Origin: Diplonema japonicum
Lineage: Eukaryota > Protista > Euglenozoa: Diplonemea
DNA length: 64,000 bases
Direction of reading: 5' to 3'
NCBI GenBank assembly: GCA_964019335.1
Contig: OZ025654.1
Location: 744,001 to 808,000 of the forward strand
Within the stretch, counting starts at the first letter, position 1. Each line of letters starts with the position of its first letter. The position numbers and the translations under genes are program-made. The notes beneath the pieces are model-generated. The model did not search any database. It was given only the letters and a program-made list of their open reading frames with translations, and had not been told where the DNA came from. This document shows positions 21,001 through 63,849 of the stretch, in pieces.

Positions 21001-24000
21001 CCTCACTTGTCGCAGCGTGATACAGCACCCCCAGCAGGTCTTCAGCAGCACCGCGGCCAAGTCCGTTGTCCCCGCACGTGTACGGTGCCGGGTCATTCTC
21101 TAATGCCAGCGTCCTCTCGCATGCAAAACTATCATGCTCAGAACTCTCCAGAAAAGCTCTTGTAGAGCGATGTAGTGTGCAAATCTCTTTAAAAAAGGAC
21201 ACGCCAGTGCAGTTAGCTGCCTTTCCACACATGCCTTGGCACTGCTCCATCGACGCCGTGTGGTGCACAGCAAGTATGTTGCCTTCGTACTTTGCACTGG
21301 TCCTGCATGCGTACATTGAAACTTGCTTGTAGCTTCGGACGCACGATTGGAGGCTCTTGTGCTCTTGAGCACGGCTCGCAGGTGTGCCTCTCTCCAGGAG
21401 CTTGCACGTTTGCGCCAAGCCGTCATACACAACCAGCATGCAATCCGGTGTGGTGTCACAGTTCTCCTGACATTCCACAATGGTATCCACATCTGATAAG
21501 GTCACGATTGGTGCGCCCTCCCAATCTCTTTCCTCTTCGCAGCTGTAGGACATCCCTTTACTACAAGTTACATGTGGCTCTGCTAAATCAGACGCAGCCC
21601 ATTTACCGCTTATGCCAAGGAGCGTGCAATCATTCGTAGTAGGCACGTAAACCGCCCTGACACAGGTAGGTGTTGCGTCGCATTTTATCTGACACTCGCG
21701 AAGCGAAAGCAAAGGGCCTTCCCACACAAACGCGCCTTTAACATAATGTTTGGTGGAAGTCATGCAACTATAGGGCGTGGCGGGGTAGCACACAAGCGAA
21801 CCGGGTGCCGTGCCCTGCATCTCACCTTCGCGCGCAAGATGACAGCTATTATCGTATGTGAGTGACTTACAGGAAGGCGTGGAGTCGCACTTCTCCTTAC
21901 ACTCTGCCAGGGAAATCTGGAAGGCTCCTTGCTCATACTCTAAATGCCGTTTGTCTTCCTCGCAATAATAGCTGTCGGTGAGCATGCAAGATATAACGTC
22001 CTCAGCCTGAGCGAGCACTGCCGACGAGTCCTTTAACAGACACCAACTACTTGCTGCTGTATAGGAAATTTTGTTGCAAGCAGTATCTGCATTGCAGCTG
22101 TACTGACACGCCGCCAGAGAGGGCGCACTTGTCATGCGGATGTCGCCACCGTTGAGACTGCCCTCCTCGCAGCTGTAGACTTTCCTATTGTAAGCAAGGG
22201 GGAGGTCGCCTAGCACTGCATTGACACTGGTAGCGTCATCGGAATTGGTGGGATCGATACACAGGACGTGGCCAGGGGTGGTGCTGATAGAGTCGAGCAC
22301 GCCGATCAGGTTGCAAGACGTATGATGGCAAGACACCGCCTTGCAGAATGGGGTTGCAGAGCATGCAGACAGTGCATCGTCCCAATTGTCAACTGTCAAA
22401 CTTGCCAGCTCGCTACCATGTCCTTTCTGCCCCTCGGTGCACGTGAACTTCTCGCCTGTTAGCTTGGCGACCTCCCGCTTTAACTTCGAACAACTCTCCA
22501 CACCGCTCTTCTGCTCACCCCCCTGTATCACGTCCCTGAACACCACACACAGCTTTTCAACGGCATTCCACTTCACAGCTGTGCATTCAACCACCTTGCT
22601 GCAGTACGTGGCACAGGACTTGGTGCTCGAGACATCGTTCACAACGAACAGCTGGCTACCATCGAAGTCAGCTCCTTTCTGGCAGCTGTACCCTGCGTGT
22701 TGCGTGTTGTTAGATAATAACCTGCATGACATATCCTTGCCATCCGTTCCTGCGAGGAGGGCCTCTGAGTACTTTTTGAGACGGCAGATGTTTGTATTGT
22801 TGTTGTAAGTCACGAGATTACACTTAGGAAGGGAGTCGCATGCTGATTTGCAAGCTTCTATCGAACCTGCTTCGAAGCCAAGTAGGTCGCCTCCCATAAA
22901 GGTGGCCCCCTGCGTGCATGCATAGTGTGTCGCCTCGGCGTCAGTTTCATCGAATGTCACCTCGCAGCCTACCGCAGCATCACTATCTCGCACGGAGGTG
23001 CCCTGCTTTCCTAACACACATGACTTGTCGGACTGGAAGTAGGTGGCCGTCTGGCAGGCAGATGTCATGTCACACGTTCTGATGCACTCCGTCGATGTCA
23101 GGACGTTCTTCATGGTGAGAAGTTTTTCTGCAGAAAACGACCTTCGTGGAAGACACGTGTAATCCTTCGCAGCTGCATGTACAAGTTCGACAGCCCGTGC
23201 CAGCACTACTTCATGAACCTGCTGTGGTTCTAATTTTTCTGCTTGCGCCATGACACGCACAGCCGTACCCTGTGTCTCGAGGGTGTTGTATGTGCGAGAC
23301 AGGAGCCCGGTGCTGGAGATGATGCTGATATCCATATAATCTTGCGATATTCCCAAAGAAGTAGCCATGCCACTCATCAGCGGCTCTTTGAGGTCTGACA
23401 GAGTTTGCACGTCTACAGGAAGCTCTATGTTGATGGAGAGCCTCATATTGCTGTCAGGCACAATTTTTCCAATACACAGAACAGTATTCGTATTTGGGTC
23501 TACACCGTGCACCTCCTCCACAGCCCTGTACAGTCTGCAGTACTGCATGTCGTTGTAAGACACAGCAACGCAGCCTGCAACCAGCGGGCAGTAATTCCTG
23601 CAAAGCTCGACACTTTCCACTTTCTGGACTTCAAGGATTTTATCGTCGGCAGTGATATCCTTGTTGTACTCGCAGTCTGGTGAGCTGTACCGCGATTTCC
23701 TTTGCCAGTCGAACAACGGGTCCTCAATTGCTTTCGCTCGCACTTTGACTTCTACTTCCAGGGCTTCGTACTTTCGTGAGATATCCGAGTCTGGTTTAGC
23801 TATGCTCGCTGCAATCCTCGTCTCGACCATACTGCGGAACTCCGTAAAAGTCTGCCCATCACTGATAGAGTCGGCTGGCTGTACTATTTCAAACGTGATC
23901 AGTGAGTAGACAGACACACCCACAGCACCCACTCCCCCACCGCAAGAGTCATCAGTGATGTCAAGTGGCGTACCTGGGTCTCTACACGCAAGGATGCTCA

Positions 24001-27000
24001 GAGTATCAGGAGCTACACTAAGGAACACAGCACGCTCTAGGTCCACCAGCAGGGCCTCTTCGTGTCCTTTCAGCTCTGCAGGGCTGACCATCATACGTAC
24101 TTCAACAAGAACGCTTTTCTTGATACCTGGTGCACCTCTTGTTTCTCTTGTCAGCCTCTTGCAGGCCGTTGAGGCACGCCACACTTCGTCAGAGACAAAG
24201 CTTGATGCAAACACCTTGATATCGCATGTGTGACAACGTGCCCTGGCAGGCCTCGGCCGTGGCTTAGACCCAGGGGGCGCAGGGCAAGCACCGCGATGCA
24301 CAAACCCAACACAAGAGGCAGTCCTCTCACAGTGCAGCTTGCATGTGTCGATGTCGTCGACGTCGATAACGCGGTACAGGTCGCCACCCTCAAGGTTGCT
24401 GTCCTCTTGACAATCGTAGTCATCGGTGGGCTGTATCGACAGGGCCTGTACCTCTCTGGAGTACTCCGCACCCTTGAGCAGGCAGTGAATGACTTGAGTG
24501 GTACTTGTTGCTGAGGGTTTATAAGTGCGCAAAAAGTCGCAAGTAGCTGTCCTTGCCTTGTACCTCACTGCACCGCAGTATGCGACACCGAAGCACTCTT
24601 CAGCGCACTTTGAGGCAGACGCAGTTCCCTTTGTGCTGCTGATCACCTCGCCTTGCACGTCGCCATGCTTGCAAGTGAACCTGTCCGTCGCGACGTCGCC
24701 TGTCTCCGCCTTCCTCGTGCAGCTAGTGGCGTCTTCTGACTTTGGGACAGAAACTTCCTTTATAATGTAGTCCAGTAAGCGACATGTTACCGTTCTTGTT
24801 TTCCTTTTGTAGACAATACCCAAGCAGGAAGACACTTGTGTGCATTTTTTCTCGCACTCAGCTATCGTCAGCCCCGTGAAGGAAGCTCCTTTTGTATCAC
24901 CTTTCAGTGCAACATGCTTTGTACAAGAATATGTTGGTGTTATTTCAACCTGCTGTGGTGTGTCCCAGGCTTCTTGTTTTGTGCAGTGTAACGACCCCTT
25001 GCACTCCTGAGGCACGGAAAGGGCTTTCAGCAACGCGCAATGTTTATCTTTATACGAAAAAGCGATGCAGGCAGAGATCTCTTTGCAGTGGGACTGGCAT
25101 TTCGTCAGACTGATGGGATTGAACTGCAGCAGCACGGCAGCTTCTTCTTCTGCAGCTGACGAATCGTTAAAGCAGACAAAGGGTGCGCTCTCTTTAGGGG
25201 CATCCGGTTGGCACTCGTACTGCAGGGTGGGTGTGTTCTTGTGCTTGCCGCAGCCTATCATGTGGTGATCTACGAGGCCATTGTCCCATTGTATCTTGTA
25301 CCACCCTCCTCCCCTGCATGGTTTGGCTTTCTTCAAGATTGTACCCTTGATCACACCCGCCGTGGCCGGGTCTTCTCTTATCACTTCCAAGCCCTGTTTG
25401 ACAACTTCGCTTGTCACATGACAACGTGGGTGAGGTACTCGCAAGCAGGATTCTCTGTCTGTGTCCTGCGTGCTGCCGCTGTCTTCGTAGATAGCATCGT
25501 ACAGCATGCACGTGTTGTTGCTTTCTTTGTATGTGACGCCAACGCACTGATCGTACTCGCTGCAACTTTCTTTGCATCCGTCAAGTGATGTCGTAGACAC
25601 GTGGTTGTTGTGCCCTGCCACTTGCACGTTGCAGTCGTAATACGACTTCCTACTTCTACCTCCTCCCCTACCCCTTCCTTGGCCACGCGTTACAGCTGTC
25701 AATGCAGTGTGGTGACACCCTGCAAGTGCAAGATCATACTGGCCATCGCAGCCTGCTTTGTAACTTCCCTTCGTGTCCGTTTCCTTCCAGTACACCATCA
25801 CCCAGTATCCACCCGGGCACTCAGCCGACCTCTCAATCACAGTGCCTGACCCCCTCCCGTCCTCGTTTTGATATGCCCAGTCTGCACCCCTCACCACCTC
25901 CAAGCCTTTGTCAAGCTTGTCGGGGAACACTCGACAGTCGTGCTCTGTTTCTTCTTCCTGCTCGTCCTCGTCCTCATCCGAGTGTGTCTTTGAGTCTTCA
26001 GGCATCTTGCACCCCGCCTGTCCTGACACGACACGGAAAGACCGCGGACGGATCGTGGGCTCTTCGCATGAAGTCATCAGCCAGCATCTTTCGTTGTTTC
26101 CATTCCACGTGAAGCAAGTGCACCCTACCTCATCCTTGCACAACGCAGAGCATGCATCAGCTCCAGTTGCTTCTCTGTATGTCTCTTCCAGGTTCTCGTT
26201 TCCCTCTCTAATACTGTTATATTGTGTATCGATCTCACATAGTGGCACCTCTTGGGCCACCAGCTGGTGACACACAGGCAACCCGCTCCACCCCGTCACC
26301 TGGCACACGACCACGTCACAGGTGTGGCCTGGCTTTATAGCTTCGCACGTCTCGCCGATTGCAAGGGTGGTGTTGCACGGGATGACAAGGTCGGTGCCCT
26401 GCAGCAGCGAGGTGTGGCACAAGGAGGGCGTGCAGACGGGCTGCACGGGGAACCAGGTGGAGTTCTGCAAGCAAGACACCGCCTCGCATGTGTGACCCTC
26501 CAAACTATAAGCGCAGTAGGAAAGTGGTGGCGTGCGCTGCTCGTCAGCATCAGGGCACGTCAGCTTCCCAGCCGTGAAGGCAGCAGTCAGGTCTGACAAG
26601 CTGCAGCCTCCCTGGGGTGCTGTGCGCCAGCCTGTGACGGTACAAGTGGTGTTCAAACCGCCGATTTTACGGGTTTCATAGATGTTGTGGTGAGTGTCAT
26701 CTGCGGTGCAGTAGCGCACCTCGCCGCCTTCGCAGAATTGGTGTTCGAGCATGTTGATGCGCTCTGTGGTCCGTGTCCTGCCCCATGCTACGCTGGCGTG
26801 CGTGTTGTTGATGAGTGCGATGATGTTCCCCTCCTCGGCTGTGTTCCTGTGGCGCACCTCGGCAGGTTTGGGGCCGGTCACAGAGCACATTGCGTAGCTT
26901 GTTGCCAAACTGCAGTCTTCCTCGCCTGCCACGTGCTCCCCTGACTCACTGTATCCGTCCACGCTGCCGTACAGGGAACACTCCTTCGACAGCACCGACC

Positions 27001-27169
27001 AGTCCCATCCCTTGCACCCACCCTCACCAAGGCACAGGGTGTGACATGTGTCTAACCTTCTGCTATGTCCCTTCGTGGCGTCCCTGCCATTCACCTTGTA
27101 ACCCCTCCTACATGGCTCAGTGTTGCTTGCCGCACACAGCAGAAGTAGCAGAGGTGCAGCGGTGACCAT
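15089..27169 (-). CDS. Giant single-pass receptor-like protein (~4026 aa): many PAN/apple repeats, two MIB/HERC2-like modules, laminin-type EGF, TM, cytoplasmic PDZ-like and SH3/Tudor-like domains
   Basis: Signal peptide MVTAAPLLLLLCAAS; more than 20 CxxxCxxxxxC...C-x-L repeats; CSSNG..CTCTC..YAGAKCDACAEGF; TM WWFVFPATAFAILAIVVALFVIL; KKTAEPMGLVW..VTVNSPAE..VNG. No introns. Confidence 0.92.
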   Translation of the reverse strand: MVTAAPLLLLLCAASNTEPCRRGYKVNGRDATKGHSRRLDTCHTLCLGEGGCKGWDWSVLSKECSLYGSVDGYSESGEHVAGEEDCSLATSYAMCSVTGPKPAEVRHRNTAEEGNIIALINNTHASVAWGRTRTTERINMLEHQFCEGGEVRYCTADDTHHNIYETRKIGGLNTTCTVTGWRTAPQGGCSLSDLTAAFTAGKLTCPDADEQRTPPLSYCAYSLEGHTCEAVSCLQNSTWFPVQPVCTPSLCHTSLLQGTDLVIPCNTTLAIGETCEAIKPGHTCDVVVCQVTGWSGLPVCHQLVAQEVPLCEIDTQYNSIREGNENLEETYREATGADACSALCKDEVGCTCFTWNGNNERCWLMTSCEEPTIRPRSFRVVSGQAGCKMPEDSKTHSDEDEDEQEEETEHDCRVFPDKLDKGLEVVRGADWAYQNEDGRGSGTVIERSAECPGGYWVMVYWKETDTKGSYKAGCDGQYDLALAGCHHTALTAVTRGQGRGRGGGRSRKSYYDCNVQVAGHNNHVSTTSLDGCKESCSEYDQCVGVTYKESNNTCMLYDAIYEDSGSTQDTDRESCLRVPHPRCHVTSEVVKQGLEVIREDPATAGVIKGTILKKAKPCRGGGWYKIQWDNGLVDHHMIGCGKHKNTPTLQYECQPDAPKESAPFVCFNDSSAAEEEAAVLLQFNPISLTKCQSHCKEISACIAFSYKDKHCALLKALSVPQECKGSLHCTKQEAWDTPQQVEITPTYSCTKHVALKGDTKGASFTGLTIAECEKKCTQVSSCLGIVYKRKTRTVTCRLLDYIIKEVSVPKSEDATSCTRKAETGDVATDRFTCKHGDVQGEVISSTKGTASASKCAEECFGVAYCGAVRYKARTATCDFLRTYKPSATSTTQVIHCLLKGAEYSREVQALSIQPTDDYDCQEDSNLEGGDLYRVIDVDDIDTCKLHCERTASCVGFVHRGACPAPPGSKPRPRPARARCHTCDIKVFASSFVSDEVWRASTACKRLTRETRGAPGIKKSVLVEVRMMVSPAELKGHEEALLVDLERAVFLSVAPDTLSILACRDPGTPLDITDDSCGGGVGAVGVSVYSLITFEIVQPADSISDGQTFTEFRSMVETRIAASIAKPDSDISRKYEALEVEVKVRAKAIEDPLFDWQRKSRYSSPDCEYNKDITADDKILEVQKVESVELCRNYCPLVAGCVAVSYNDMQYCRLYRAVEEVHGVDPNTNTVLCIGKIVPDSNMRLSINIELPVDVQTLSDLKEPLMSGMATSLGISQDYMDISIISSTGLLSRTYNTLETQGTAVRVMAQAEKLEPQQVHEVVLARAVELVHAAAKDYTCLPRRSFSAEKLLTMKNVLTSTECIRTCDMTSACQTATYFQSDKSCVLGKQGTSVRDSDAAVGCEVTFDETDAEATHYACTQGATFMGGDLLGFEAGSIEACKSACDSLPKCNLVTYNNNTNICRLKKYSEALLAGTDGKDMSCRLLSNNTQHAGYSCQKGADFDGSQLFVVNDVSSTKSCATYCSKVVECTAVKWNAVEKLCVVFRDVIQGGEQKSGVESCSKLKREVAKLTGEKFTCTEGQKGHGSELASLTVDNWDDALSACSATPFCKAVSCHHTSCNLIGVLDSISTTPGHVLCIDPTNSDDATSVNAVLGDLPLAYNRKVYSCEEGSLNGGDIRMTSAPSLAACQYSCNADTACNKISYTAASSWCLLKDSSAVLAQAEDVISCMLTDSYYCEEDKRHLEYEQGAFQISLAECKEKCDSTPSCKSLTYDNSCHLAREGEMQGTAPGSLVCYPATPYSCMTSTKHYVKGAFVWEGPLLSLRECQIKCDATPTCVRAVYVPTTNDCTLLGISGKWAASDLAEPHVTCSKGMSYSCEEERDWEGAPIVTLSDVDTIVECQENCDTTPDCMLVVYDGLAQTCKLLERGTPASRAQEHKSLQSCVRSYKQVSMYACRTSAKYEGNILAVHHTASMEQCQGMCGKAANCTGVSFFKEICTLHRSTRAFLESSEHDSFACERTLALENDPAPYTCGDNGLGRGAAEDLLGVLYHAATSEACKSFCDILPSCTCYNYLWSGDHVRCMFYPSCTKGSDKQTCAKAKRTQKSFTPRDDLRKTLNCTANPSPTKWKLLYSVIDVDTVQACTTKCAQVTNCKYIEWKDHDKECILLGTGKGYIVKSTSLGCEVLPDVTRAIRRTKTFKCSTDLSLLGNRFIVASHSTKESCKARCEESFTCSAIHYSQDDKTCTLFGTSVLMMSKALSRKIKVYREVPAGVACVVVTPGKELQEEFVCAKGKGHIGGDMLSMLKVPFAKCKSLCTVIPQCIGLTYEGNKQCSLRTTGAVMSARLTTVACNRDHSLYSGQLRSAFTCTSSLSFSGKTLITVAGITSPADCSLLCSSYSYAIIPMLCTASSHYKANDTCVLFKGKVTGRYMPHTKQKIMSCKRDGDTDGQAKPTMEEIIRSTTVTYKCDKGKTEAPVYGSELFVIENINDVKTCQLQCYNTKGCIALVYEQKDTTCLLLDSVPVPAATTKLEESKETCWEEVGSVRGCECSNSCSGVCDITPSRDCTLETLWMECDIVRKSRMATFLSAKTSVVTVIVTMKQPGLSAAVFEGVQFPSDDSGSSGFLISLDVRVPDGVSHATFSRDVLKRLKEIHESSTILPGALDASLHALGLKPWAETRWSLREKERAVYYSSNEEDSAPFDDVTSSGPRRALLQLDEGGQPQLDVERRNERIKGILNLLAAGDTNPCTAGWADADYGVMSNRYNLETQWYLKGTLAECIEACKVRDECVAFSRVYGEDMANSACYFKRRLLPIIGSQVTFSGYRTYIYKCPEQGLTCDFAEHEDAELEAADQFRSEEISVLQMKITSSSVCKAACVMMWDCKGTTYFEATRQCHFIQEPADHVTTAQGATSFICSQRVATTPQPTPAPTLLKTSLLERWQAVIYNEFDANVTDVSDGAVTPTLTLPVQDMVVRYTTENVTEQHALHLTYENTDVSSFFNKDDRFGASYLAELLSQMATELGVLPTDIELKELCRADVAGKPLDCYYANGTAISSARTAQFLQAQAASVFIDLDINIKKEEVLQTATLPSGKTLSIGPEELFPPGSRILDDSGNVQGTADSMGRVTRTPQAQEVFSKYTSSVDLPLSPALATSMLSEKKKYTSQGLISFVESHATQWVNGNHLGTVCHKGVNGSTVACNGSPECTIVGDCSSNGFPQGFKGACTCTCLPAYAGAKCDACAEGFTGFPYCTPEGIRSPVDIPKWMHHVEKWDDSNMYQTFHLVVSDAPDMLMRRLYSFTTELRRALGDMARMVWMLHLCKTELCNGTCPEVRVDSWNDDLFAHCAVLYPVEYGNETVSESSDRSRAHALSVQKTLVELDVEYDTAPPAVQDIVAALLQVPAVVSVVSITQPGKRMSPHNEREQQAPYATHEAIIDTNNGSKLFDWWFVFPATAFAILAIVVALFVILRVIRKRDDGARSQLIMMKHEVFIEKKTAEPMGLVWEDHTLLKSVTVNSPAEHADAQRFIGRRAVRVNGINVETLRGIKEAAGNSVLVHIEFERQGPCLAIKLVGNAMGVDEKWFIKTLVCEADLDEADITVVGILEPDLLASTSKAVYLVLFRVNGWLQFQADGFIQRCRDLEDPIHNTMHISGISYARLDDIRIARNKYGDEDDCLEPLNLWVACSWAKKEQVASCHGVYTRHDVLHNGYPVWERDRREEDNYDRLCYRTKTGLWAVCSTHEEMSQNIGYLVSGKTLQGPHLGRNEWEDYDGGGSTDYSVTANPVVIRGYCLGDTVRVTTNTPWKGIVRGQGKKEATVKVKMCDGSNITTHKDNVDITNGPFVNVRNEDAEWSTGQIVNISEDDTRVKVHVCLEPYEAAKWYNKNSEDLQLEKLDIAIGDTVELVEDVIPSEDTCMIHGEIGMVLQILSDGETSTPFGVKGPDGSVAWYSEEMLKPVDTASTAKPEGSVAWRSVLPQPEVKRRASKANLATMLVNNRIEHMHDPHTPTSSSQSSHLIDMSNDVDSTVL

Positions 27170-28364
27170 AGTGCTTGAGGTGATCGTTGTGTTAGGAAGG
27201 TGGTGAGGGAAGAAAAAAAAGAGTAGGGAGAACATAAGAAAAAGAAGAAGTGAAGAGAAAAAAATAAAAAAGAAGGTGTGAGGGAAAAAAAAAAAGAAGG
27301 GGAGAGAATTTTTTTTGGGCGGAGGGGGTACTACTTGTTCTTCATTTGGTGGGCTTTTTTTAAGTATTTTTTTTTTTGTTGCAAATTTCCTTAAGAAGAA
27401 CAAGGATGGGGAAACAGGGTGAGGCAAGGGGGTGGGGGGGATGAAGAGTAGGCTCAATAAAGAAAAGTGTTTATATTTCCTTAAATATCATTGTTCGCAA
27501 AAAAAAGGGGGGGTATGAGAGAGAACAAAAATAAAAGTCCACCCCCTTCATAAAACCGAGAGAAGAGAAAGAAAACCACATTTTAACCAATAAAAAAATC
27601 AACCGAAGAAAAATAAAAGAAAAAGAACAGTGTCTCGCAACAACGTGTGGGGTTTCTTTTTTATATGTTTTTTTTTTATTTTTTTTTTTTGCGAGGAGGT
27701 GAGTGGGAGTTCAAAGCCTTTTTTTTTTTTTTTTTTTTTTTTTCCTTTTTTTTTTTTCTAAGACTTCCTGACATTAGTTCATTATTTCTCTCTTTCTCAA
27801 GTTTTCTTTTCCCCTTTTTGGGCTATGTGAAAGTTGCATTCTATATTTTTTTTTTCTTTCTGAATACGTGCATGGGGGTAGAAAAAAAAAATAAATTTTT
27901 TCCAAAAGCAAAAAAAAGGGGGGGAGAGAAGGGGGGGGGACAGAATAAATAAATAAAAAAGCACTTCCCAGACTGCTACCATATTTTGATTTTCTCGTAG
28001 TTAGTTTTATTTGTCATCCCATCCAACTCCTTCCACACCCTCTGCATGCGAATTGCAAAAGAGGGCAAGGAGTCGTGGGACCAAAATCCTTTTTTTTACA
28101 CTAAGCCAAACGGAAGGGAAAAGAAAAAAAAAAAAAAAACCGAATAAAAAGGGAGAAAAAAAATAAGACCTGGGATCGCGCTGCTTTTCTTCTGTCAAAA
28201 AAAAAAAAAAGATAAACATTTGTAACAAGAAAAAACAAAAAAAAAAAGAGAAGAAAAAAAACCAACAAAGAGAAGAACCTCACCACTTTCCTCTCAATAC
28301 TTCTTTTTTTTTTGTGTGCGTGTTGTGTGCATGTGCTTGTGCCGAAAATAACAAACTATCTTCG

Positions 28365-49590: not shown

Positions 49591-50346
49591 AACAGGGTTG
49601 TTGCTTCTTTTGTTATGCCTGTAGGTGGCTCCAGTACTCTGCACTGGCAAAATTGAAAAAAAACCCATATCACCACTACCATGTGACCCCCTCCCTCCCT
49701 CCCTCTTTGCCAAACGTTCCTTCAGGGGGGAACTATATGAAAAAATACATAAGAAACTGCTGGTTCAGTGGTCAAGCCTGCAAACACGTGGTGAGGTAGT
49801 GGTCAAAAATATCCTCCTCAGCGGACTGACAAATTCCCAGGATACGAAAAAAAACTCAGGCCTTTATCCGCACAGCACCTTTACGTGTAAATAGGAATAA
49901 ACGGCGAAGGATTTTCGGATTTAGAACTTTCCCCAGGGAGCATCGAAACGACATAGAAAGGATTGTTCGCAGATTGTTTTCCCCTTTTTGCCACCAACGC
50001 TGGCTTTTCTGAGCTAGTTATTATTTTCGAGACGACTTCTTTGAAAGCCAAGCGAACAAAGAAAAAAAGAAATGTGCCTAAATATATTTTGTAATTAATA
50101 TAGGCCTTCCTCCCTCTTTTTAGCCTAACGGGCAGCAGGGCGTTATATCTTCTCCTGCACCTGCAGCAACCCCAAGCTTGCCCCCAGTCCCACCAGCAGT
50201 CCTCACAATGCCTCTTCCACAAGTTGGCCACAAACCAACAAGTTTATCAAGCTTATTTTCCCTAGCCTTTCCCCCACCCTATTTTTACATTTATTTCTGC
50301 AAAAACCTTCATTTAACCCTTCAGGTTTCATCTTTATAACAAACCG

Positions 50347-53070
50347 ATGGCTTGCACGGCGTTCAAAGAGCGTCTAGAGAATGCTTCAGCTGCTGTGCAT
50401 AAGGGTACTGAAAAAGCGTTCGAGAAGCTGAGCACAGTCGTGGTCGAGTCCCCGTGGATAACGATTGGTTCGTGTGTCCTGTTCACGATAGTGATGGCGC
50501 AGGGCATATGGCTGTACGATGAGGAGCTGTCAGCTGACAAACAGTTCACTCCACGGGACAGCCGGGCCGTGAGGGAAGAGGACTGGGTGGTGGAGAGGTT
50601 CGGGCAAGACAGCAGACAGGTGACATTGATGATTGAAGCTGACGAGGGGACCAGCATGCTGACAAGGGAGTCGCTGCTGTTTATGCAAGAGGCGCACGAG
50701 TGGATGCTGTCGAGGTCCCTCATCGTTGATGGAGTGAATGTAACCTACGATGTGGTGTGCTCGCGATACTCTTCCACCGATCCCTGCAAAACCCCTATCT
50801 CTGTCCTGTCCTTCTGGCAGCACAACCGAACGCTCCTGGAGGCAGACGCCGACCCTCTCCGCACCATCAACACCGTGTCGTGGCGTGAGATCGAACCGAC
50901 TGGCCCGCCCCTCTCCTACTACCTCGGTGAGGCAGTCCGTTCGTCCAACGACAGCGTCCAGTCTGCGAGGGCGGTGCGTATGACTTACGACCTGAAGAAT
51001 GAGAAAGAAGAGATCTCCGGCATTGGTGAAGATGACCCGCAGAGCAGGTACTTCGAGATCATGATAGCCGAGACTTCAGCAGACAGGCGTGGGCAAGACA
51101 GGACAGCGCACAAGGCCGCCATGTTCATCCTCACAGTGGCGCAGGAAAACGTTGCGGGTGATGACGCGATCCAACAGGATGTGATCAGCCTCATCATCGG
51201 CTACATGCTGCTGCTGTTCTATGCTTCGTTCGTGCTGTCCCGGGGCCGCGTGAAGTACTCGCACTCGCTGCTCGGGATAGTCTCTGTGGTGTCGGTGGGG
51301 CTGTCTACGTTCGCGGCCTATGGGTTCTGCTGGCTGATCGGCGTGAAGTTCAACAACGTTGTCCAAGTGCTTGTGCTCGTGCTGCTGGGGGTCGGGGTGG
51401 ACGACACCTTCGTGATCATGGACTCGTGGTGGGACTGCGCACACCTCCCGGATATGAAGGAGAGAATGATCACCGCGTTGAAGCACGCAGGGCCTGCCAT
51501 CACGATTACTTCGGTGACGGACCTTATTGCTTTCCTTGCAGGGTCGAGCACAGCGCTTCCTGCCCTGAAGGACTTCTGCTACTACGCGTCAGTTGGGATC
51601 GCCTTCGACTTTGTGTTCCAGTGCACGTTCGTGGTGGCGATCGCCTACTTGGACTCCGTGCGCCAAGAGAAGGCACGGGCTGACATGCTGTGCTGCGTGC
51701 CCGTGACAGACGACAGCGGGGTGTGCGTGAACAAGGACGAGCCGTGGTCGGAGGGGGACAGGGGAATCCAGAAGCGTGTGGTGGGGACCTATCTCCCGCG
51801 CCTGCTGCTGCACCCCATCGGGAAGCTGGTAGTGTTGTTGATGACCCTGTTTTTCCTCGCGATTGGGATATTCGGGTGCACCAAGGTCAAGATGAACTAC
51901 GACAACGAGTGGTTCATCCCCGACGGGCACGCCATCGAAGACGCCATCGACGTGAGGGACAGATACTTCGCGAGGTCCGAGCTGCCTGCCAACGCATACT
52001 TCGGAGACATCGACTATCCGAACCAACAGGAGGTGGTGCTGCGCGGGGCGACCATCCTGAGGCGCAACGTGTGGGCGGTGGCAAACAGCACCTCGTCGTG
52101 GATGGAGGACTTCCAAATGTGGGTACAAACGGAACAGGGAGCGCACTGGGACACAACAAATGCGAAGGTGGTGCCTGGGGAGTTTTACAGGCTGCTGCGG
52201 CAGTACGCGTCGACGGCAACAGGCCCCCGCGCTGCATGGCAACACATCGACAACATCAGGTGGAAGGCAGACGGGAGTGGGTTGACAGCCTCGCGCATCG
52301 GTTTCTTCATCGTGGGGGCTGTCAACTCGGACGGTGAAGACGCGGTGGATGCAATGGACAACCTGCGGGCGGAGCTGGACGGGGTGGCCTTCCCGTGGGC
52401 CTTCTCCTTCGTGTTCTGGGAAGCGTACAAGCTCATCATCCAGGAGATCACCAGGAACGTGGCCATTGCAGGGTCGTGTGTCTTCCTGCTGGTCACCATC
52501 ATGATTGCGAACATACAGCTCGGCCTGCTAGTGACAGTCGCCATCGGGTGTGTTGATGTATGCATGATCGGATTCATGCCCTTCATCGGTGTGGAGTTGA
52601 ACGGTGTCTCAGTCGTGTCCATTGTGCTTGCAGTGGGGCTTAGCGTTGACTACAGTGTTCACATAGCTAACGCATTTCTGCACGTGGGGTGCGAGGACAT
52701 TGAAGGCTACTCGGGGAGGGAGCAGAGGGCGGCTTTCGCGTTGTGGAAAATGGGCCCTGCTGTGGTGAATGGTGGGGTGTCGACCTTCCTGGCGATCCTC
52801 CCTGTTGCCTTCGCCGTCTCGTACGTCTTCAAGGTCTTCTTCAGGATGTTCGCGATGATCATCTTCTTTGGACAGTGGTTCGGTGTCTTGGTTGTTCCTC
52901 TCCTCCTCTCTCTAGTGGGACCTGACCAGTACCTTTCCGCGCCCGACCTCAATGCGACACCTTATCAGAACCCCCTACACCCTGATCATGATGAACCTCG
53001 TGTTGCGAAGCCGTCACTTCCTGCTGACGAAGAGCTTGAAGCTACTCGCAATGCCCCTGAATCGGTGTAG
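50347..53070 (+). CDS. Patched/NPC1-like sterol-sensing-domain RND membrane protein
   Basis: LGVGVDD, AGPAITITSVTD, VGLSVDYSVH; 12-TM RND topology. Confidence 0.93.
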   Translation: MACTAFKERLENASAAVHKGTEKAFEKLSTVVVESPWITIGSCVLFTIVMAQGIWLYDEELSADKQFTPRDSRAVREEDWVVERFGQDSRQVTLMIEADEGTSMLTRESLLFMQEAHEWMLSRSLIVDGVNVTYDVVCSRYSSTDPCKTPISVLSFWQHNRTLLEADADPLRTINTVSWREIEPTGPPLSYYLGEAVRSSNDSVQSARAVRMTYDLKNEKEEISGIGEDDPQSRYFEIMIAETSADRRGQDRTAHKAAMFILTVAQENVAGDDAIQQDVISLIIGYMLLLFYASFVLSRGRVKYSHSLLGIVSVVSVGLSTFAAYGFCWLIGVKFNNVVQVLVLVLLGVGVDDTFVIMDSWWDCAHLPDMKERMITALKHAGPAITITSVTDLIAFLAGSSTALPALKDFCYYASVGIAFDFVFQCTFVVAIAYLDSVRQEKARADMLCCVPVTDDSGVCVNKDEPWSEGDRGIQKRVVGTYLPRLLLHPIGKLVVLLMTLFFLAIGIFGCTKVKMNYDNEWFIPDGHAIEDAIDVRDRYFARSELPANAYFGDIDYPNQQEVVLRGATILRRNVWAVANSTSSWMEDFQMWVQTEQGAHWDTTNAKVVPGEFYRLLRQYASTATGPRAAWQHIDNIRWKADGSGLTASRIGFFIVGAVNSDGEDAVDAMDNLRAELDGVAFPWAFSFVFWEAYKLIIQEITRNVAIAGSCVFLLVTIMIANIQLGLLVTVAIGCVDVCMIGFMPFIGVELNGVSVVSIVLAVGLSVDYSVHIANAFLHVGCEDIEGYSGREQRAAFALWKMGPAVVNGGVSTFLAILPVAFAVSYVFKVFFRMFAMIIFFGQWFGVLVVPLLLSLVGPDQYLSAPDLNATPYQNPLHPDHDEPRVAKPSLPADEELEATRNAPESV

Positions 53071-54269: not shown

Positions 54270-57200
54270 ATGAGCAGCGATTCAATTTTCAACCACGTCT
54301 ATACATTCTTCAAGGAAAGCAGGGACGAGGTGCTGAATGCCGTGGCTGTGAAGAAGCTGATGAAACAGTTCTTCTCTGTAGACGGTTCCCCCGACGACCT
54401 GTCGAACGTTGAGTGGCCTATCGCCGAACTGACGCTGAACGTGGAGGAGAAGGGGGACAACCTGAACACCTTCCTGGGGAGCAAAACCAGGTTCGCGGTG
54501 AAGAGCGGGGTCCTGAAGGAGGCGGAGTACGACAACAAGCGTTTCAAGGCGGAGGAGGGGGTGTTCAAGCTGCACTACCGGCGGAGGCAGCAGGACGACA
54601 TGAGAAGCTTGGACGGTGAAGGGGTGTACCAGTACTGCAAGTTGATCGGCTTGGAAGACGCGCAGGCGTTCAAGGAAACAAAGGGCGGCGAGCTAGTGAA
54701 GATCGTGAATGGCGAGATCCCCATGCGCGCGGTGGAGGGCACCATCCCTGCGCTGAAAGAAGCGTTCAAACAGCAGTTTTACGACCCACTCAGCTCTGCT
54801 TCGCCCGTCTTCACAGCCTTGCTGAAGCACTGCGACTCCTTCAGCAACGTGGAGTGCCACGTGAAGAACTGCAAAGTGGTTTTGATCTACGATGAAACCA
54901 AAACCACATCTAGCAATATCACCTTCACGCTGACCAACCTGAAGGTCACAAGCCAGTCCGTCACCTTTGACAGCCTCGTTGCCTCATCTCCGACTACCAA
55001 CGATTTACTACGGGCAACAGGTTTCTCATCGACAGCTGCGGGTATCAAGGCCGAGTCCTTGGCCGCCACCGCCTGCGAGGAGCTCCATATCATCCACGAT
55101 GCGTCGAGCTTCGTCAACGGCTGCACCCAGGCCAACATCGCGGTCGAGACAGCGTCTCTCACCATCTCCCACTTCACCCTCGCAACAGAGAAGCTCTGCC
55201 ACACTGACGAGGGCAAGTTCACAACGGCTGCCTGCCGGTTGCAACAGGGCGGGAAGGACCTCGGAATCGTGCTGGACGGGCTCTGCGGGACAGTGAAGCG
55301 GGAAGAGGTAGAAGTGGGATCGTCCGGGGTCGGATTCTTGAAGTACAAAATCGACATGACCAAGCCGGACATCAAAGGGAACTTCTCCGAGGACGACCTT
55401 GCGGCGTTCGCCATGATGAAGCAGAAGTTCTTCGAGCAGCAGGAGAAAATGACCGGTGACCCCGTGACACAGCTCGTCGTGGTACTAAGGTGCGACACAG
55501 CAACCCTCAGCCACCCTGCACCCTGCGGGGGGCAGAAGAAATGGGTGCTCGATAAACCGGCCTTCAATGTGAAGTGGAAGTCCGACTCGGGTTTGTTGTC
55601 GTGCGAATTGGGGTGCACCGGGGCCGGACAGGCGCTGTTGGACGACAAGCGAGTCTTCCACACACAGGGAATGAAGTTTGTGTACGTGAGATCCACCGAC
55701 AAGCAAGAGATCCAAAAAATGGACAAGCCGGTCTTTTGCTTCAGAGACACCCCTTTTTACCGCGGCAGTGACATTGGCAAACAACCTTTGCTGGCTTTAC
55801 AAGGGGCGTTGCAGCCTTTTCTCTACCGCAACGTGAACACTGCTGTGGAGCAGGTGAAATTCATTTTCTCGGACGTTGAAATCACCCTAGACCAGCTCAC
55901 CCTGAACTCAGTACCCTCGGAGCTGTCACTGGTCACCACGCTGTCGGGGTCGTGCACGATAGTTGACAGCGACAGCCATAAGCCCATTCTAACTCTGTCC
56001 TCGTTCACAACGGAGCTCGACGTGGGGCCCACCCACACGACCATCAAGTGGATCGACAGCGATGCGCTGGACTGTGCACAGGGCTGCTTCAGTGACGTCC
56101 CGTCCTACCTTCTCCTGCTCGCGAATATGTGCGGCAGCTCTCTCTCCCTCACCAAGTCTGATATCAGGCGGGCGACGTTCCAGTCGCAGAGCAATTCACC
56201 CATCGAGTTCCGAACGCTCTCTCTGTCATCATCGAGCGAAGGTGTCCCTGCCGTCAGTGTGACACCGAGCTTCGAGAAGGTGAAGACCAGCAGACTGCCT
56301 CTGTGCGGTGGGCACCCGCTCAGGTTTACAGTAGAGCGCCTCACAGCCGACTCTGTGACGGTGAATGACATGACGGTGAATGGCCTCGACATGAGGCTTG
56401 GGTACAATTGCGGTGCTGTGGACCTCGAGGTCCGCAGCATCCAGGACATGCAACTGCAAGGGGAGGCAGCCACCCCCGACGGGATCGCGGCTGGTGTGGA
56501 GGCTTTGAAGGGGCTAGTGCGTTCGACGGCCAGCACTCTGAAGGGATACCGGAAGGGTGCCCTGAAGACCCTCGACAGGAAGATCAAAGAGCACCAAGAC
56601 CTGGTGCCAGATGAAGAGAAGAGCCTTGTGCCCCTCCCCCCGAAAGAGCTGTTGGTTGTGAACAGTGGAAAAAGGGCTTCTTATCACCAACAGTGGCTGA
56701 GCGCGTTCCGTATGCCTGGTGAAACATCACAGGTGCTGACCTTCAGCGTGGGCTGCATCGCCAAGTGCACCGTGTTGCTTGAGGAGGAGCTGGTCTTGGA
56801 GCTTGAGGAGGTGAGTGTGGAGGGCAAGGGGGACTTCGACGATGACAACGCAACGCCTTTGGTCCTGAGGTTCTCGAAAATGGTTCTGAGGGACTGCGCT
56901 GAGCCGACGCCGACGACAATGTTGCTGATGAAGAACAAGGCCTGCATCTCCTTCAAACCAGATGGCGTAGTGCAGCTGGACTTCTCGAAGATGGATGTGG
57001 TGGTTAGCGTAAAGGACATGTCGCTTCTGCGGAGCCTCATAAGCGTCGTGAAGCCGTATTTCGACCTCGTAGATGACTGCAAGTGCATCCCCGTGGCAGA
57101 TACCTCAGTGACAGTCCATGTGAGGGCTGAGGTGTGCTTCGAAATCGTGGCAAGAGCGTACGACTCGGACTTGGTAGCCGAGCTGAGAGACTTTATCGCA

Positions 57201-59642
57201 AAGCTCAACGACTACAACAATAAATGGGAAGGCGGCTACGAACACGTCTTTAAACTGAAGCACCGCAAGCAGGCGTTGAGCTTTGGGGACCTTCTCAGCA
57301 ATGTGCAGGCCGAGGATGTCTTCAATGTAGGTTGGGTAAGCAGGATGATCTCGGCGACCACCAACTTCAACGCAAAAAAGCATGAGAACAAGTTGAAGTA
57401 CGAGCAGTGCCGCGAGGAAACCGCCAACGTGAACATCCTAGAAAAGATCACCGAAATGCTGAAGGTAGGGAAGGAGAAGGAGGCACTGGAGTACCTGCTG
57501 CGCAGAAGCTGCGAAAGCGGAGCGGACATGTCGTGGCTGTCACAGTTTGGAATGCACGCGCAGGGACGGGGGAGGGCTGCCAGCGTTGGTCCGGCAGGGC
57601 TTGTACCTGGGTCAGGTGGTTTGCCTTCTGCTCCTGGTGGAGTTATCAAGGCACCTCAGCCTGCCCCTCCGAGTGGACTCGTTGTGCACCCAGTCTCTGT
57701 TGCGCCCCCGGTTCCCGTTGCACCCCCGGTCCCCAGTGTTGTCCCCAGTCGACCTGTTCCTGGTGCACCTCCTCCTCCTGGTGGAAAGATACCGCCTCCT
57801 CCCGGTGGTGGGAAGATACCACCCCCTCCCGGTAGTGGGAAGATACCACCCCCTCCAGGTGGAAAGATACCTCCCCCTCCACCCCTTGGTGGCATACCAT
57901 CTGCGCTCGGGTTGGGTGGTGCAGTTGCGGTTATTAACTTCGAGAGCCTCGTCCCGAAGAAGAGGCCTAGGAAGACGGAGACGACAGCAACGTTGAAGAT
58001 ACACAGTAAGGTGCCCCCATCAGTGACCAGTTCAATCTGGAGCACGGTGCTGGCTCGGGATGTTAATGTGGCCATCAACCTAGCTGAGTTCGAGAAGAAA
58101 GTAGGGGGCGGGATAGCTCCAAAGCCAAAGGCAGCAGACTCTTGGGTGGCCGTGGTCGATCAGAAGCGGCTGAACCAGCTGGACATCATGTCCAAGTCTT
58201 GGGACGAAGAGGTGGTGGGATACATCGGAGAACTGGACCAAGAGTTGTTCTTGGACGAGTCTTACGAGTCTTTGGTACAGGCACTCAAGGTAGATGACTG
58301 GAAGAAGGAAGGGAACAACGTCAGAGAGAAGTTGGCCCTGCCCGACGAAGACGAAAAGCTATACAAGCAGGTCTTGTACAAGCTGCACATGGCGAACAAC
58401 TTCCCCGCAATGTACATGATCCTCAAGGAGTGGTACAGCGAATATGGTGACAACACGACTGCGCGTAAGATGTGTGAGCTCGGGTACAAGGAATACTGTG
58501 AGGCGTGCAAGACTCTTGAAGACAAGGCCTTCACAACAGCGCTGGGTGCTCTATGGCAAGTGACTTATTGTCTGAATGAACCGAAGGACGCCAAGGTATG
58601 TGCAGGAGAACAAAAAAGGAAAAGGGTGAAGTGCTAACTAGACCTCAAGTTTTAGAAATGCTCAAAGTCCGCCCCTTCAAAATGCCCCAAGTCAACCTCC
58701 CAATTTTTCTAATGCCCACATTAGACCCCTAGTCCGACCGGGTTCGGTTTAAAGTGCTCAAAACACCCCCTTAGTTTTTCTCGACTCCGTTGGGCGTCCC
58801 TTTGGCGATGTACTGCAGCTTGCTGAAGCTGTAATAATTGCGCTGCTGTCATGCCAGAACACCCCCGAAGTCACCACCCTGGTGCATGTGCGAAACCGCT
58901 GACGGAAGACCCGAGTGTCGGTCATTTGAGCATTTTCCTTTAAACTTAGGGGTCTAGTTAGCAGTAAAACTGAGTTTTCTCGGGAAAAAAAAAAAAAAAA
59001 AAAAAAAAAAAGACTCCACATTTCGTTGGGTCGAACCTCCCCATCGACCTGCTGCAAATTGATAGGGCGTGCACAACGAAGGCACCACAGAGTGGCAAAT
59101 CTGTTGTTCAGTATGCAGCCTGCAATCTAGAAGGTGCCGAGGTAGTGCCGCAGGAGGTGTTGAATGCCTTGATCGTCCTGGAGAGGAACTTCGAAAAGGA
59201 GTATGTGACACTGGGGAGGGGGGGAGCGGGAGGGTCATGTTTCGAAAGAGACTTTTTAAGGGGTATTTTTTGCCCCCCCCCAAAAAAAAGAAAAAAAGAA
59301 AACACATACAGGAACGAAGACTTTGAGAAGATGACCCTCTTCATGAAGAAGCTGAGGGCGCAGCACGAGGTCCAAAAGGCATTTGTCAGCAGCGCTGGTA
59401 CCCCACCGGAGAGGAAGACGGCTTCACTGCAGTTCATCAAAGTCGTTAACAACGCTTTCTCATGGGAGAAGGGGCTCAGCGAGACCAAGGAGGCATGCAC
59501 CAAGGCTGAAAACGCCCGGAAGGAGTTGCTGACTTTCTTCTGCTTAAAGAAGGAAGATGAGATTGCGAAGGTCTGCAAAAACCTCCAGCAGGTGATTTCT
59601 GAGTGGAACGGGGAGGTAGAAAAGACAAAGCCGAAACAGTAA
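54270..59642 (+). CDS. Formin (FH1 plus divergent FH2) with a ~1,050-aa beta-rich N-terminus; exons 54270-58595, 59013-59200, 59312-59642 (1614 aa)
   Basis: GGKIPPPP repeats; KIHSKV..SSIW..INLAEFEK..VVDQKRLNQLDI; spliced exon 2 reads IDLLQIDRACTTKAPQSGKSVVQYAA. GTATGT donors. Confidence 0.82.
58637..58958. mobile_element. 322-bp MITE with ~30-bp TIRs and TA duplication inside formin intron 1
   Basis: TGC TA|ACTAGACCTCAAGTTTTAGAAATGCTCAAA ... TTTGAGCATTTTCCTTTAAACTTAGGGGTCTAGT|TA GCA; the empty site TGCTAGCA is palindromic. Confidence 0.8.
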
Positions 59643-60360: not shown

Positions 60361-62207
60361 ATGTGGTGTGTGAGCATCAAAGTCTTGAACATAGCGCTTG
60401 TGTTGCTGTGCATTGTGATGACTGCATTTCTGTGCACGTTCTTTGCGATAAGCAGCAGCAACACAGCGTTAGACGACACGAAGTCCTCGCGGGACTACTC
60501 CGTGGACTCATGCTTCGCGGTGGGCGGAGAGAGTGTTCAAAACAGAACATATGATTACACAGACCTGCTGATGATGAGCACCATAGACCACATGCACCAG
60601 TTCTTCGACCGCCAACGCCAGATGCCGGTAGAGATGGCCGACGAGCTGATGTCACACGAATGGGACGACATAAAAAGATGGGAATGGCACCGCATGTCTC
60701 GATACTACTGGCCTTACCACACACTACGCGGGCTGGGCAGCACTGGGGTGTTAATCATGCTGAGAAACAAGCTAATGATGTACATGTACGAGTCGGGCGA
60801 CACAGTGCTCCACGATCCGAGCGCTTACCACGAATTGAAGATTAGAGTCAACTATGGTGACGATCACCCGCAAGGCGGGTATCAACGATCTTTCGAAACT
60901 CATCTAATGCACGGGACAGGTCTCCCTTACAATGTAGTCAACCCCCTTACAGATGTGAACTGGAACTACAGCAACTGCAGCCAAGGGATCGCACTCGCCA
61001 CCAACGGGAGTCAGTATGACGAGCCGTGTATAGCACGAGGCTACGACGACCCATCAACAAACGGTATTTATGGTGCCGGGCACCTCTTCTCCGAAGGCTC
61101 TTGGGGGTACCCTTACACCAACGCGAACAACCACCTCATTGTTGCCTTGTTCGCGCCCATCCGCCACAACGGGGTTTACTCCGGTGTCGCCGTGTCCGGG
61201 GCCGATTTACGCCAGATCAGCTCCTGGATGGCGAGGATCAAAGTCGGCGGCCCTATCGGAGGATACCCATCAAGAGGCCGCTTGTTCATAACAGTCAGGA
61301 CAAGCTTCATGATACCCTCCAGCGTAGGAAAACTGCTAGGATCATCACACGGAGGGTATGGACAGTACAACAACATTCCCATAAAGGACTGAGCTGTGAC
61401 TTATCAGTCTAAATTCTTTTTTAAACTTCTGCCAAGGAACTTTTAGTGCTCTGCATGCCCACTCTTTAAAGAGGGGCCCTATTGCGCGACTTTTTTTTAT
61501 ACTGAATGCTATATTGCCCATAAATCTTTGCATCAAAACTGCAAGGGGAGAAAAAAAGTATTGGCACATACATTGTTTTTTTTTAAAGGACTTTTACAAA
61601 CCCCATAAGGAGTCGTGCCGAAAGCACTTCTGAAGAGTCAGTGTCACCGGATGACGGGGATGTCTCGGATATGGAATGGGATGACAAAATCGAGAAGGGG
61701 AGGAAAATATTTCGCAAGGTACCAGGTCCAACTGTACCAATGTGGGCCTCAATGGGCTGGAGGTCTTTCCTTTGTTTTTGAGGGCGGCCTTCCAGCAGGG
61801 GGCTTGTCTTGTACTTTGAGTTGTTTTTCACTCCTGCGGTTCTAAAAGGTTATCGTGGGGTGGGCAGCAAGCCATTCGAGTGGTATAGAGGCCTTTGGAT
61901 ACTTACAGGGCACATAATCAAGACAGATATCAAAGTCTACTGGGCACAGGATGAACTCACAGATACCCCATATTCATAATATTTCAGAACGGTAATGGGA
62001 AGAAACAGGCTCCTAAAAATAATGCGCCTCTACCACCAAAGTTTGGGCGTCCGGGGCTGATATGCAGGTCGCTTCACGCTCCAGAACTGGGGTAGTGAAA
62101 ATAATATGGCTAGACACCCTATAACTCCACCCTTGCCATTTTATTTTTGTATCAGAACGAGAAGTTCAGAATCGGCTTTTTAGACCGGCAATAGCGGTCC
62201 TTTGTGG

Positions 62208-62244
<37 letters not shown>

Positions 62245-63849
62245 GTAACTGTGCTTAATCAGCAGGGATCGATAGAAGCAATCTACCCAGCTAACAGCAC
62301 AGACGACATTGTGAAGCGGGCCGGTGAGATCACAGAGAACAAGACAGCGCATGAGAGTGGTTGGATCGAAGGCCTCGCAGCGAACTCCACTGTTGAGGAG
62401 CTGAACATCACAACCGATTACGCCCCCGAGGGAGAACCCTTCTACTACAGGGTGGGCTACATGAACGACGACTACGGCATTGACTGGTTCCTCCACGTGC
62501 TGCTTGACAGGGCGTACATCATGGAGTCCATCGAGGAGAAGCTTGATGAGACCCGTTCCGGCATCGCGTCTGCGGAGAAGAAGGTTGAAGACGATCTAAC
62601 ATCTGCCCGCGCGGTGCTCTACGGACTCGTCGTCAGCACAGCGGTCGTGTTGATCACCGTTTCAGTGGTGTTTGTCCTGAAGATCATCGAACCGCTTGTC
62701 ATGCTCGAACGAGAAATGGCGATGGTCTCGTTAATGAAGCTGGAGTTCGTCGACAGGGAACGCCCCTTCAGCATGCTGCAAGAGGTCCGGCTTATGCAAA
62801 GGAGCTTTCTCAAAATGACGGAAAACCTGATCGAATACAGAAACTACATGCCGGCATCCGTTTTAGAAGACACCGACGACGAGGAGGACGGAAACACCAG
62901 CCAGAGCAGCGCCACCATAACCAGCAAATCTGTTACATCGTCGCAGTCGGGGAATTGCAAGACGACGCCTTCCAACACACTGTCGGCACACGCGTCCGCG
63001 ATGACCCTTTCTCAGCATTCTTCGACAAAGGTGGACATGAAGCAGAACATCTTGCAAGGGACCGAGGCCAAGTCACGCCGTGTGACCCTCATGAGCTGCA
63101 ACGTCGTGTCCTTCCTCGGCGACTCCAACGAAGGTTCGCACATACTGGCGATGGTCAACACATACCTCTCCATGGCGTTGCATCACGTGAAGGTGACAAA
63201 GGGCATCCCTGACATCTTCAGTGGTGACAGATTATACGTTTCATGGAATGGTGCAAAGAACTGCGCCACGCACCGCACTGCCGCATACGTTTGCTCAATG
63301 GGCATCATCTCTGACACATCGCTTGGGAAAAAATACTCGATTGGGCTTGTGTCGGGGGAGGTTAAATGCGGGAACATGGGCTGCGATCGAATGAAAAAAT
63401 ACTCATTCGTTGGGTCTCTTGCCTCTTGGATGCATATTGTTGAAAGGGTGGGCCGCATGGCTGGCGCTGAAGTGGTGATAGATAAAGTGGTGAAGGAAGA
63501 GATAGAGAACCTTTCGTACTCCCGCACGGTTCAGCATGTGATGTACCCGAAGCACAGCCTGAAAACACTGCTGGTCTTCGAAGTGATGGCCAAGAAGCAA
63601 ATGATCGAGGAGGAGTGGATGTACCAGCTGGATGAGAAAGAAAAGAACGACCCCCACAAAGCATATAACAAAAGCTACACCCTGTTCATGGCAGGGGATG
63701 TTGAAGGTGCTGTACGCGAGCTTGAAGTTTATGCTAGTGGTGGGGTTTGGGATTCCGTGGTACAGAGGTATAGGGAGAAGCTTCAGAGGGCGATCGACCA
63801 CCCGATCCTTTGTGATCCTTATGGGAAGCATGAGGGCCTTGTGAGTTGA
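60361..63849 (+). CDS. Receptor-type class III nucleotidyl-cyclase-like protein (TM, Cache-like, TM, HAMP-like, cyclase); exons 60361-61355 and 62244-63849 (866 aa)
   Basis: Two TMs; IIEPLVMLEREMAMV..EVRLMQRSF..YRNYMPASV; DIFSGDR; GLVSGEVKCGNMG. GTATGG...AAAAG intron restores GSSHG|GVTVLNQ. Confidence 0.82.
61378..62208 (+). mobile_element. Internally deleted piggyBac-like element inside the cyclase intron
   Basis: TIRs CCCATAAAGGAC / GTCCTTTGTGGG followed by TTTAA; transposase relics LYFELFFTPAVL and GLWILTGHIIKTDIKVYWAQDELTDTPY..FRTVMGRNRLLKIMRLYH. The left TTAA is not preserved. Confidence 0.78.

Follow-up and report, generated by a model that had tools for sequence, protein, structure and literature searches.

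In the 64,000-nucleotide (nt) window of the Diplonema japonicum genome analyzed here (assembly GCA_964019335.1, contig OZ025654.1, positions 744,001 to 808,000; positions below are those of the window), a forward-strand gene beginning at an ATG at 54270 codes for a beta-rich rod and a formin-like FH1-FH2 region in a single polypeptide, and the same order is conserved in Diplonema ambulator. The architecture is real, conserved, and apparently undescribed; a preliminary description made from the letters alone had called it unfamiliar, and no described rod-formin fusion was found in the literature searched. The C-terminal domain is, on its sequence, very probably a divergent formin homology 2 (FH2) domain, and the rod is probably, although with less assurance, a repeating-beta-groove (RBG) structure of the VPS13/ATG2/BLTP3 kind. 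We tentatively propose that this one conserved gene combines a likely short bridge-like lipid-transfer protein (BLTP) rod with a likely formin, and would deliver phospholipid to a growing membrane while building actin at that membrane.

RESULTS

The rod and the formin-like domain are parts of one gene

The open reading frame (ORF) spans 1,455 codons, and its coding part, exon 1 (54270..58595; amino acids [aa] 1 to 1442), is a stop-free single frame that runs from the N-terminal region through the rod and FH1 into the first half of the FH2-like domain. Single contigs of 4,799, 4,799, and 4,730 nt, from three of four sequencing runs and two studies, cover 54239 to 58934-58973 with no differences, and the rod-formin join is therefore not mis-assembled. 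The claim of the preliminary description that rod and formin share a frame, with the motifs that it quoted, thus stands. Its claim of an FH1-FH2 region holds for the five polyproline tracts (aa 1167 to 1205), but the FH2-like domain is incomplete in that frame and continues past two inferred introns. Intron 1 (58596..59012, +; GTATGT...AG, 417 nt) has predicted ends that are left provisional because three donor/acceptor pairs tie at 243 bits. Intron 2 (59201..59311, +; GTATGT...CAG, 111 nt) is the top-scoring of six choices against the ortholog. The inferred exons 2 (59013..59200, +; the post region) and 3 (59312..59642, +; helices at the C-terminal end of the FH2-like domain, plus the stop codon at 59640-59642) both match the ortholog C-terminus, and the three frame pieces, joined across the two GT-AG introns, make up a protein of 1,614 aa free of internal stops.

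A filter-free phmmer search with aa 1 to 1077 against 1,835,955,588 representatives returned a sole match (E 4.6e-90), P0002, a EukProt Trinity protein of D. ambulator that also has a longer isoform, P0003. The search for orthologs that the preliminary description had called for thus finds the same fusion, with rod, FH1, and FH2 encoded in one ORF of a transcript. The ortholog aligns to aa 191 to 1093 at 28% identity, its FH1 carries six polyproline tracts, and its C-terminal domain is 36% identical over 418 columns. Identity is 24 to 39% in each 100-aa block of aa 201 to 1100, so the whole length of the rod is constrained, and it is 28 to 46% in the FH2 blocks. P0002 diverges from P0003 at the residue equivalent to intron 2 and continues Tyr-Val, as the unspliced frame of the window does at intron 2; we therefore read it as a likely retained intron at the same place. 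It ends shortly beyond, with about 110 C-terminal aa of the FH2-like domain lost. Both D. ambulator ORFs start at the equivalent of aa 191, leaving aa 1 to 190 uncovered. ORF callers are known to reassign the start on 5'-truncated transcripts, and the D. ambulator start may be either real or of that origin.

In diplonemids, genes undergo co-transcription and trans-splicing (PMC10161547), and the fusion might accordingly be an assembly or annotation artefact joining two neighboring genes of a polycistronic cluster. However, the junction sits within one stop-free exon and is crossed by identical contigs from two studies, and a single ORF in a Trinity transcript from D. ambulator encodes both parts at ~30% identity; the artefact is largely refuted, and we regard it as highly improbable.

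The C-terminal half is very probably a divergent formin

After ~1,095 aa, a short Gly/Ala/Ser linker leads to a proline-rich stretch and then to a helical domain. The FH1-like segment (57657..57899, +; aa 1130 to 1210) is proline at 35 of 81 residues, with five tracts of four to five prolines, and the FH2-like domain (57930..59639, +; aa 1221 to 1614) is spread over three exons. ESM Atlas neighbors of the corresponding part of P0003 (residues 995 to 1408) are FH2 clusters in 30 of 30 cases (best 0.93). The two diplonemid domains were also compared by hhalign with a profile of six FH2 sequences, composed of one formin (Pfam E 3e-66; its Ile118 and Lys272 anchored on mDia1) and five relatives, with one near-duplicate excluded. 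The resulting alignment runs colinearly for 204 columns (probability 11.5%, E 0.003). When context pseudocounts are omitted, it scores 29.9, a value that none of 100 shuffles reaches (maximum 22.3). The alignment places Trp1257 (codon at 58038), Ile1306 (58185), and Lys1465 (59079) against the second lasso tryptophan, the knob isoleucine, and the post lysine, respectively. I1431 and K1601 are actin-contact residues of Bni1 (PMC3192862), and the check on these Ile/Lys contacts proposed in the preliminary description comes out in its favor, as both residues are kept here and at matching places in P0003. A phmmer search with the FH2-like domain alone found no formin in the PDB. A 301,697-nt contig of a viral collection (L117:142-1926, +) codes for a canonical FH1-FH2 formin (Pfam E 3e-66), which may belong to a giant virus or come from cellular contamination.

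The N-terminal half resembles a repeating-beta-groove rod

The beta-rich rod (54840..57251, +; aa 191 to 994) is likely built of RBG units, roughly six when the N-terminal cap region is counted, an estimate from low-confidence models. The best predicted unit (55779..56129, +; aa 504 to 620) consists of a helix, five long strands, and a helix; its 10-residue means of the predicted local distance difference test (pLDDT) are 45 to 74, and it is the sole unit with block means of 60 to 74. The rod model as a whole (mean pLDDT 38.5) has a five-strand meander plus helix at aa 302 to 391 and 523 to 620, and strands followed by a helix at aa 401 to 517. At its end (57171..57548, +; aa 968 to 1093) lie amphipathic helices that are kept in the ortholog and form, in a low-confidence model, a candidate membrane-facing end. 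High helical moments occur at aa 4 to 21 and 917 to 934 (both 99th percentile), 968 to 985 (97th), and 1066 to 1083 (96th); amphipathic helices thus flank the beta region at both ends, a trait not specific to the RBG family.

Three weak but agreeing lines favor an RBG rod, none of them above the threshold of its own tool. Nine of the 10 ESM Atlas rows listed for the rod carry BLTP families. Among the best eight rows of a structure search, the Vps13 match (6CBC, to aa 431 to 609, spanning most of the best unit) is the longest (144 residues versus 96 to 116) and the most identical (14%). Lastly, the one local sequence signal of the rod points to VPS13. The structure prediction that the preliminary description had recommended thus yields, in a low-confidence model, predicted strand-helix units with Vps13 as the top fold match, below the threshold for a firm call.

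In 19 predicted strands the asymmetry between faces exceeds chance (P 0.0002), and the two species share the same face in 16 of them (P 0.14). Beta alternation over aa 191 to 1077 has a z of 1.4 (31 of 300 shuffles), and in the ortholog 2.6 (2 of 300). The alternating strands of the preliminary description are therefore borne out modestly across the rod, but not at aa 1 to 190 and 731 to 1077, where alternation is at chance level. It was correct that GBD/FH3, PTEN, and C2 modules are lacking, as Pfam finds none in aa 1 to 1077. The rod probably functions like a short BLTP, but we place it in none of the five families.

DISCUSSION

Alternative readings of the two halves

Several observations weigh against a working lipid bridge joined to a working actin nucleator, and they touch both halves of the protein. 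At the N-terminus, the putative Chorein_N-like cap (54270..54839, +; aa 1 to 190) lies beyond the D. ambulator ORF. It opens with an amphipathic helix (aa 4 to 21; net charge -2) whose helical moment ranks in the 99th percentile among windows of the protein itself, but the likeness of the cap to Chorein_N, suggested in the preliminary description, is not upheld by sequence. Pfam gives no row for aa 1 to 210 at E 10, VPS13_N included, and no VPS13_N match in the ortholog. Against a profile of 42 real VPS13 N-termini, aa 1 to 200 score at chance level (171 of 1,000 shuffles), 19 of 152 unrelated chunks of the window score as high, and the glocal score is likewise at chance (114 of 300), whereas a held-out divergent control reaches a z of 7.0. 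The profile contains VPS13 only, and the cap may be a highly derived one; weak homology is noted for Hobbit (PMC7613979). The predicted model of aa 1 to 114 has a pLDDT below 50, too low to weigh for or against Chorein_N, and the cap is no more than putative.

The same half might derive from an RBG protein that no longer conducts lipid and serves as a rigid membrane-binding spacer positioning an active formin, a role for which plant formins use PTEN-C2 or transmembrane modules, with eroded PTEN sites reported in plant PTEN-formins (PMC2386819). Consistent with this are the extreme divergence of the rod, with no Pfam or hidden Markov model signal, middle units of ~100 to 130 aa where at least 150 residues are given for RBG units (PMC7613979), only slight asymmetry between the strand faces of the best unit, and the absence of the N-terminal 190 aa from the D. 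ambulator ORF. That ORF, however, may come from a truncated transcript, and identity between the orthologs along the rod is little under that of the FH2 blocks, and we consider a spacer unlikely. Only marginally less unlikely is that the N-terminal region has another curved beta fold, such as tandem TULIP-like (BPI/CETP/SMP) lipid-binding tubes or a lineage-specific beta repeat. The strand-helix units repeat along the model, the sole local sequence signal and the leading structural match are to VPS13, and TULIP families appear in none of the 10 Atlas rows listed. TULIP folds (CETP, BPI, JHBP, and P47) and the bacterial TamB beta-taco differ from the rod, TULIP matches covering about one unit only.

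For the other half, the rod could be a working lipid bridge joined to an FH2-like domain that no longer nucleates and serves solely for dimerization, capping, or tethering to actin. In place of the GN(F/Y)MN core, this protein has TYCLN and the ortholog VYVMN, with G and N replaced and the last two positions kept as LN or MN; the first lasso Trp is apparently lost; and PF02181 at the gathering score matches neither the frame of the window, nor its exons, nor the complete ortholog P0003. In addition, Leishmania formin mutants bind and bundle actin without nucleation (bioRxiv 10.1101/2021.04.12.439584). Yet both species retain the knob Ile, the post Lys, the second lasso Trp, and an FH1 of several tracts, and we judge this loss of nucleation improbable, more so than a spacer. 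GN substitutions in fission-yeast formins lower or abolish assembly (PMC3192862), and actin nucleation by this domain is accordingly graded as likely but not assured. The protein is best named a divergent formin, one in which two formal marks, the Pfam score and the GN motif, fail.

A possible lipid-delivering formin

If the rod is a lipid bridge and the FH2-like domain a nucleator, the N-terminal amphipathic helix would, by analogy with what is known of these families (PMC7613979; PMC3192862), attach to a donor membrane, for example that of the endoplasmic reticulum. The rod would span a narrow contact site and conduct phospholipid, with lipids sliding through a groove of about six units and ~10 nm (the published size of SHIP164; PMC7613979). 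The amphipathic helices at aa 968 to 1093 would contact the acceptor membrane, FH1 would bring in profilin-actin, and an FH2 ring dimer would nucleate filaments and ride their barbed ends, such that actin is built on the lipid-receiving membrane. As a side effect, FH2 dimerization would bring two rods together by their C-termini, an arrangement that has been suggested, as speculation, for SHIP164 (PMC7613979). The site might be the feeding apparatus, a phagosome, or an endosome, which is a guess. That both halves are active is plausible at somewhat below an even chance, and slightly more doubtful again is a machine made of a single chain, a working BLTP of a separate lineage with its own actin nucleator, one dimer of which would yield both bulk membrane growth and actin force at one contact site.

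If correct, the divergence of the rod is such that this would be a new BLTP lineage beside VPS13, ATG2, SHIP164, Hobbit, and Tweek. BLTPs feed fast-growing membranes and formins shape and push membranes, and a natural fusion of the two would, as a "Rosetta stone," hint that the supply of lipid and the assembly of actin work jointly at some contact sites. The idea can be tested in Diplonema, a genus in which the genome of the type species has been sequenced (PMC10161547), and comparable genes may lie unannotated in other protists because both halves escape Pfam.

Neighboring genes and the intron insert

Directly 5' of the fusion gene, 50326-53070 (+) is an intron-less gene for a sterol-sensing protein like Patched/NPC1 (Pfam E 8e-37); the proximity of this lipid-handling neighbor is probably chance in a polycistronic cluster. 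Downstream, 60361-61392 (+) has a weak dCache match (E 8e-4) and 62125-63849 (+) has no Pfam matches but resembles, by eye, a HAMP plus degenerate nucleotide-cyclase region; these are possibly one spliced receptor gene. Elsewhere, 15089-27487 (-) is a 4,132-aa frame that contains ~20 PAN domains and one MIB_HERC2 domain, with a weak chromo-like match toward its end. An insert resembling a miniature inverted-repeat transposable element (58632..58963) lies inside the inferred intron 1, with 23-nt terminal inverted repeats that are 83% complementary and perfect over the outer 12 nt; both ends are found again on other contigs of the same sequencing runs, with a different interior.

Comparison with known systems

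The protein tentatively resembles RBG proteins (SHIP164/BLTP3, ATG2, VPS13, Hobbit, and Tweek/Csf1; PMC7613979) in its predicted five-strand-plus-helix units, its amphipathic end helices, its Atlas neighbors, and its top fold match, and with ~1,000 aa in an estimated six or so units it is nearest in size to SHIP164/BLTP3. It differs in that a Chorein_N sequence signal is undetectable, VAB, ATG_C, and PH domains are not seen here, and the protein ends in FH1-FH2. Levine 2022 (PMC7613979) lists many accessory domains of RBG proteins, a formin not among them, and the whole words "formin," "FH2," and "actin" are absent from its main text.

With formins such as INF2, mDia1, and those of kinetoplastids (PMC2386819, PMC5628938, bioRxiv 10.1101/2021.04.12.439584), the protein has in common a polyproline FH1 that is immediately followed by a helical domain of ~400 aa in which the knob Ile and post Lys are present. 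It departs from them in its divergence below Pfam detection, its replaced GN core, and the lack of Pfam matches here to GBD/FH3, DAD, PTEN, C2, and PH domains. Kinetoplastid formins are described as having no conserved accessory domain except FH1 (Grunt 2008, PMC2386819), and the terms "VPS13" and "chorein" are absent from the text of Pruyne 2017 (PMC5628938). The supplement of the D. papillatum genome report (PMC10161547) records OG0009980, a formin orthogroup gained in diplonemids, as present in Sulcionema, Rhynchopus, and Hemistasia but not in D. papillatum; it may be the present gene.

The nearest precedent in logic, by analogy, is moss For1F, a Sec10-formin (van Gisbergen 2018, PMC5839782). 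Its partner is an exocyst subunit rather than a lipid conduit, and its two halves rescue separately, so that a fusion need not imply tight mechanistic coupling. As in the diplonemid protein, however, the fusion is lineage-restricted, places a membrane-traffic module N-terminal to FH1-FH2, and is kept across species.
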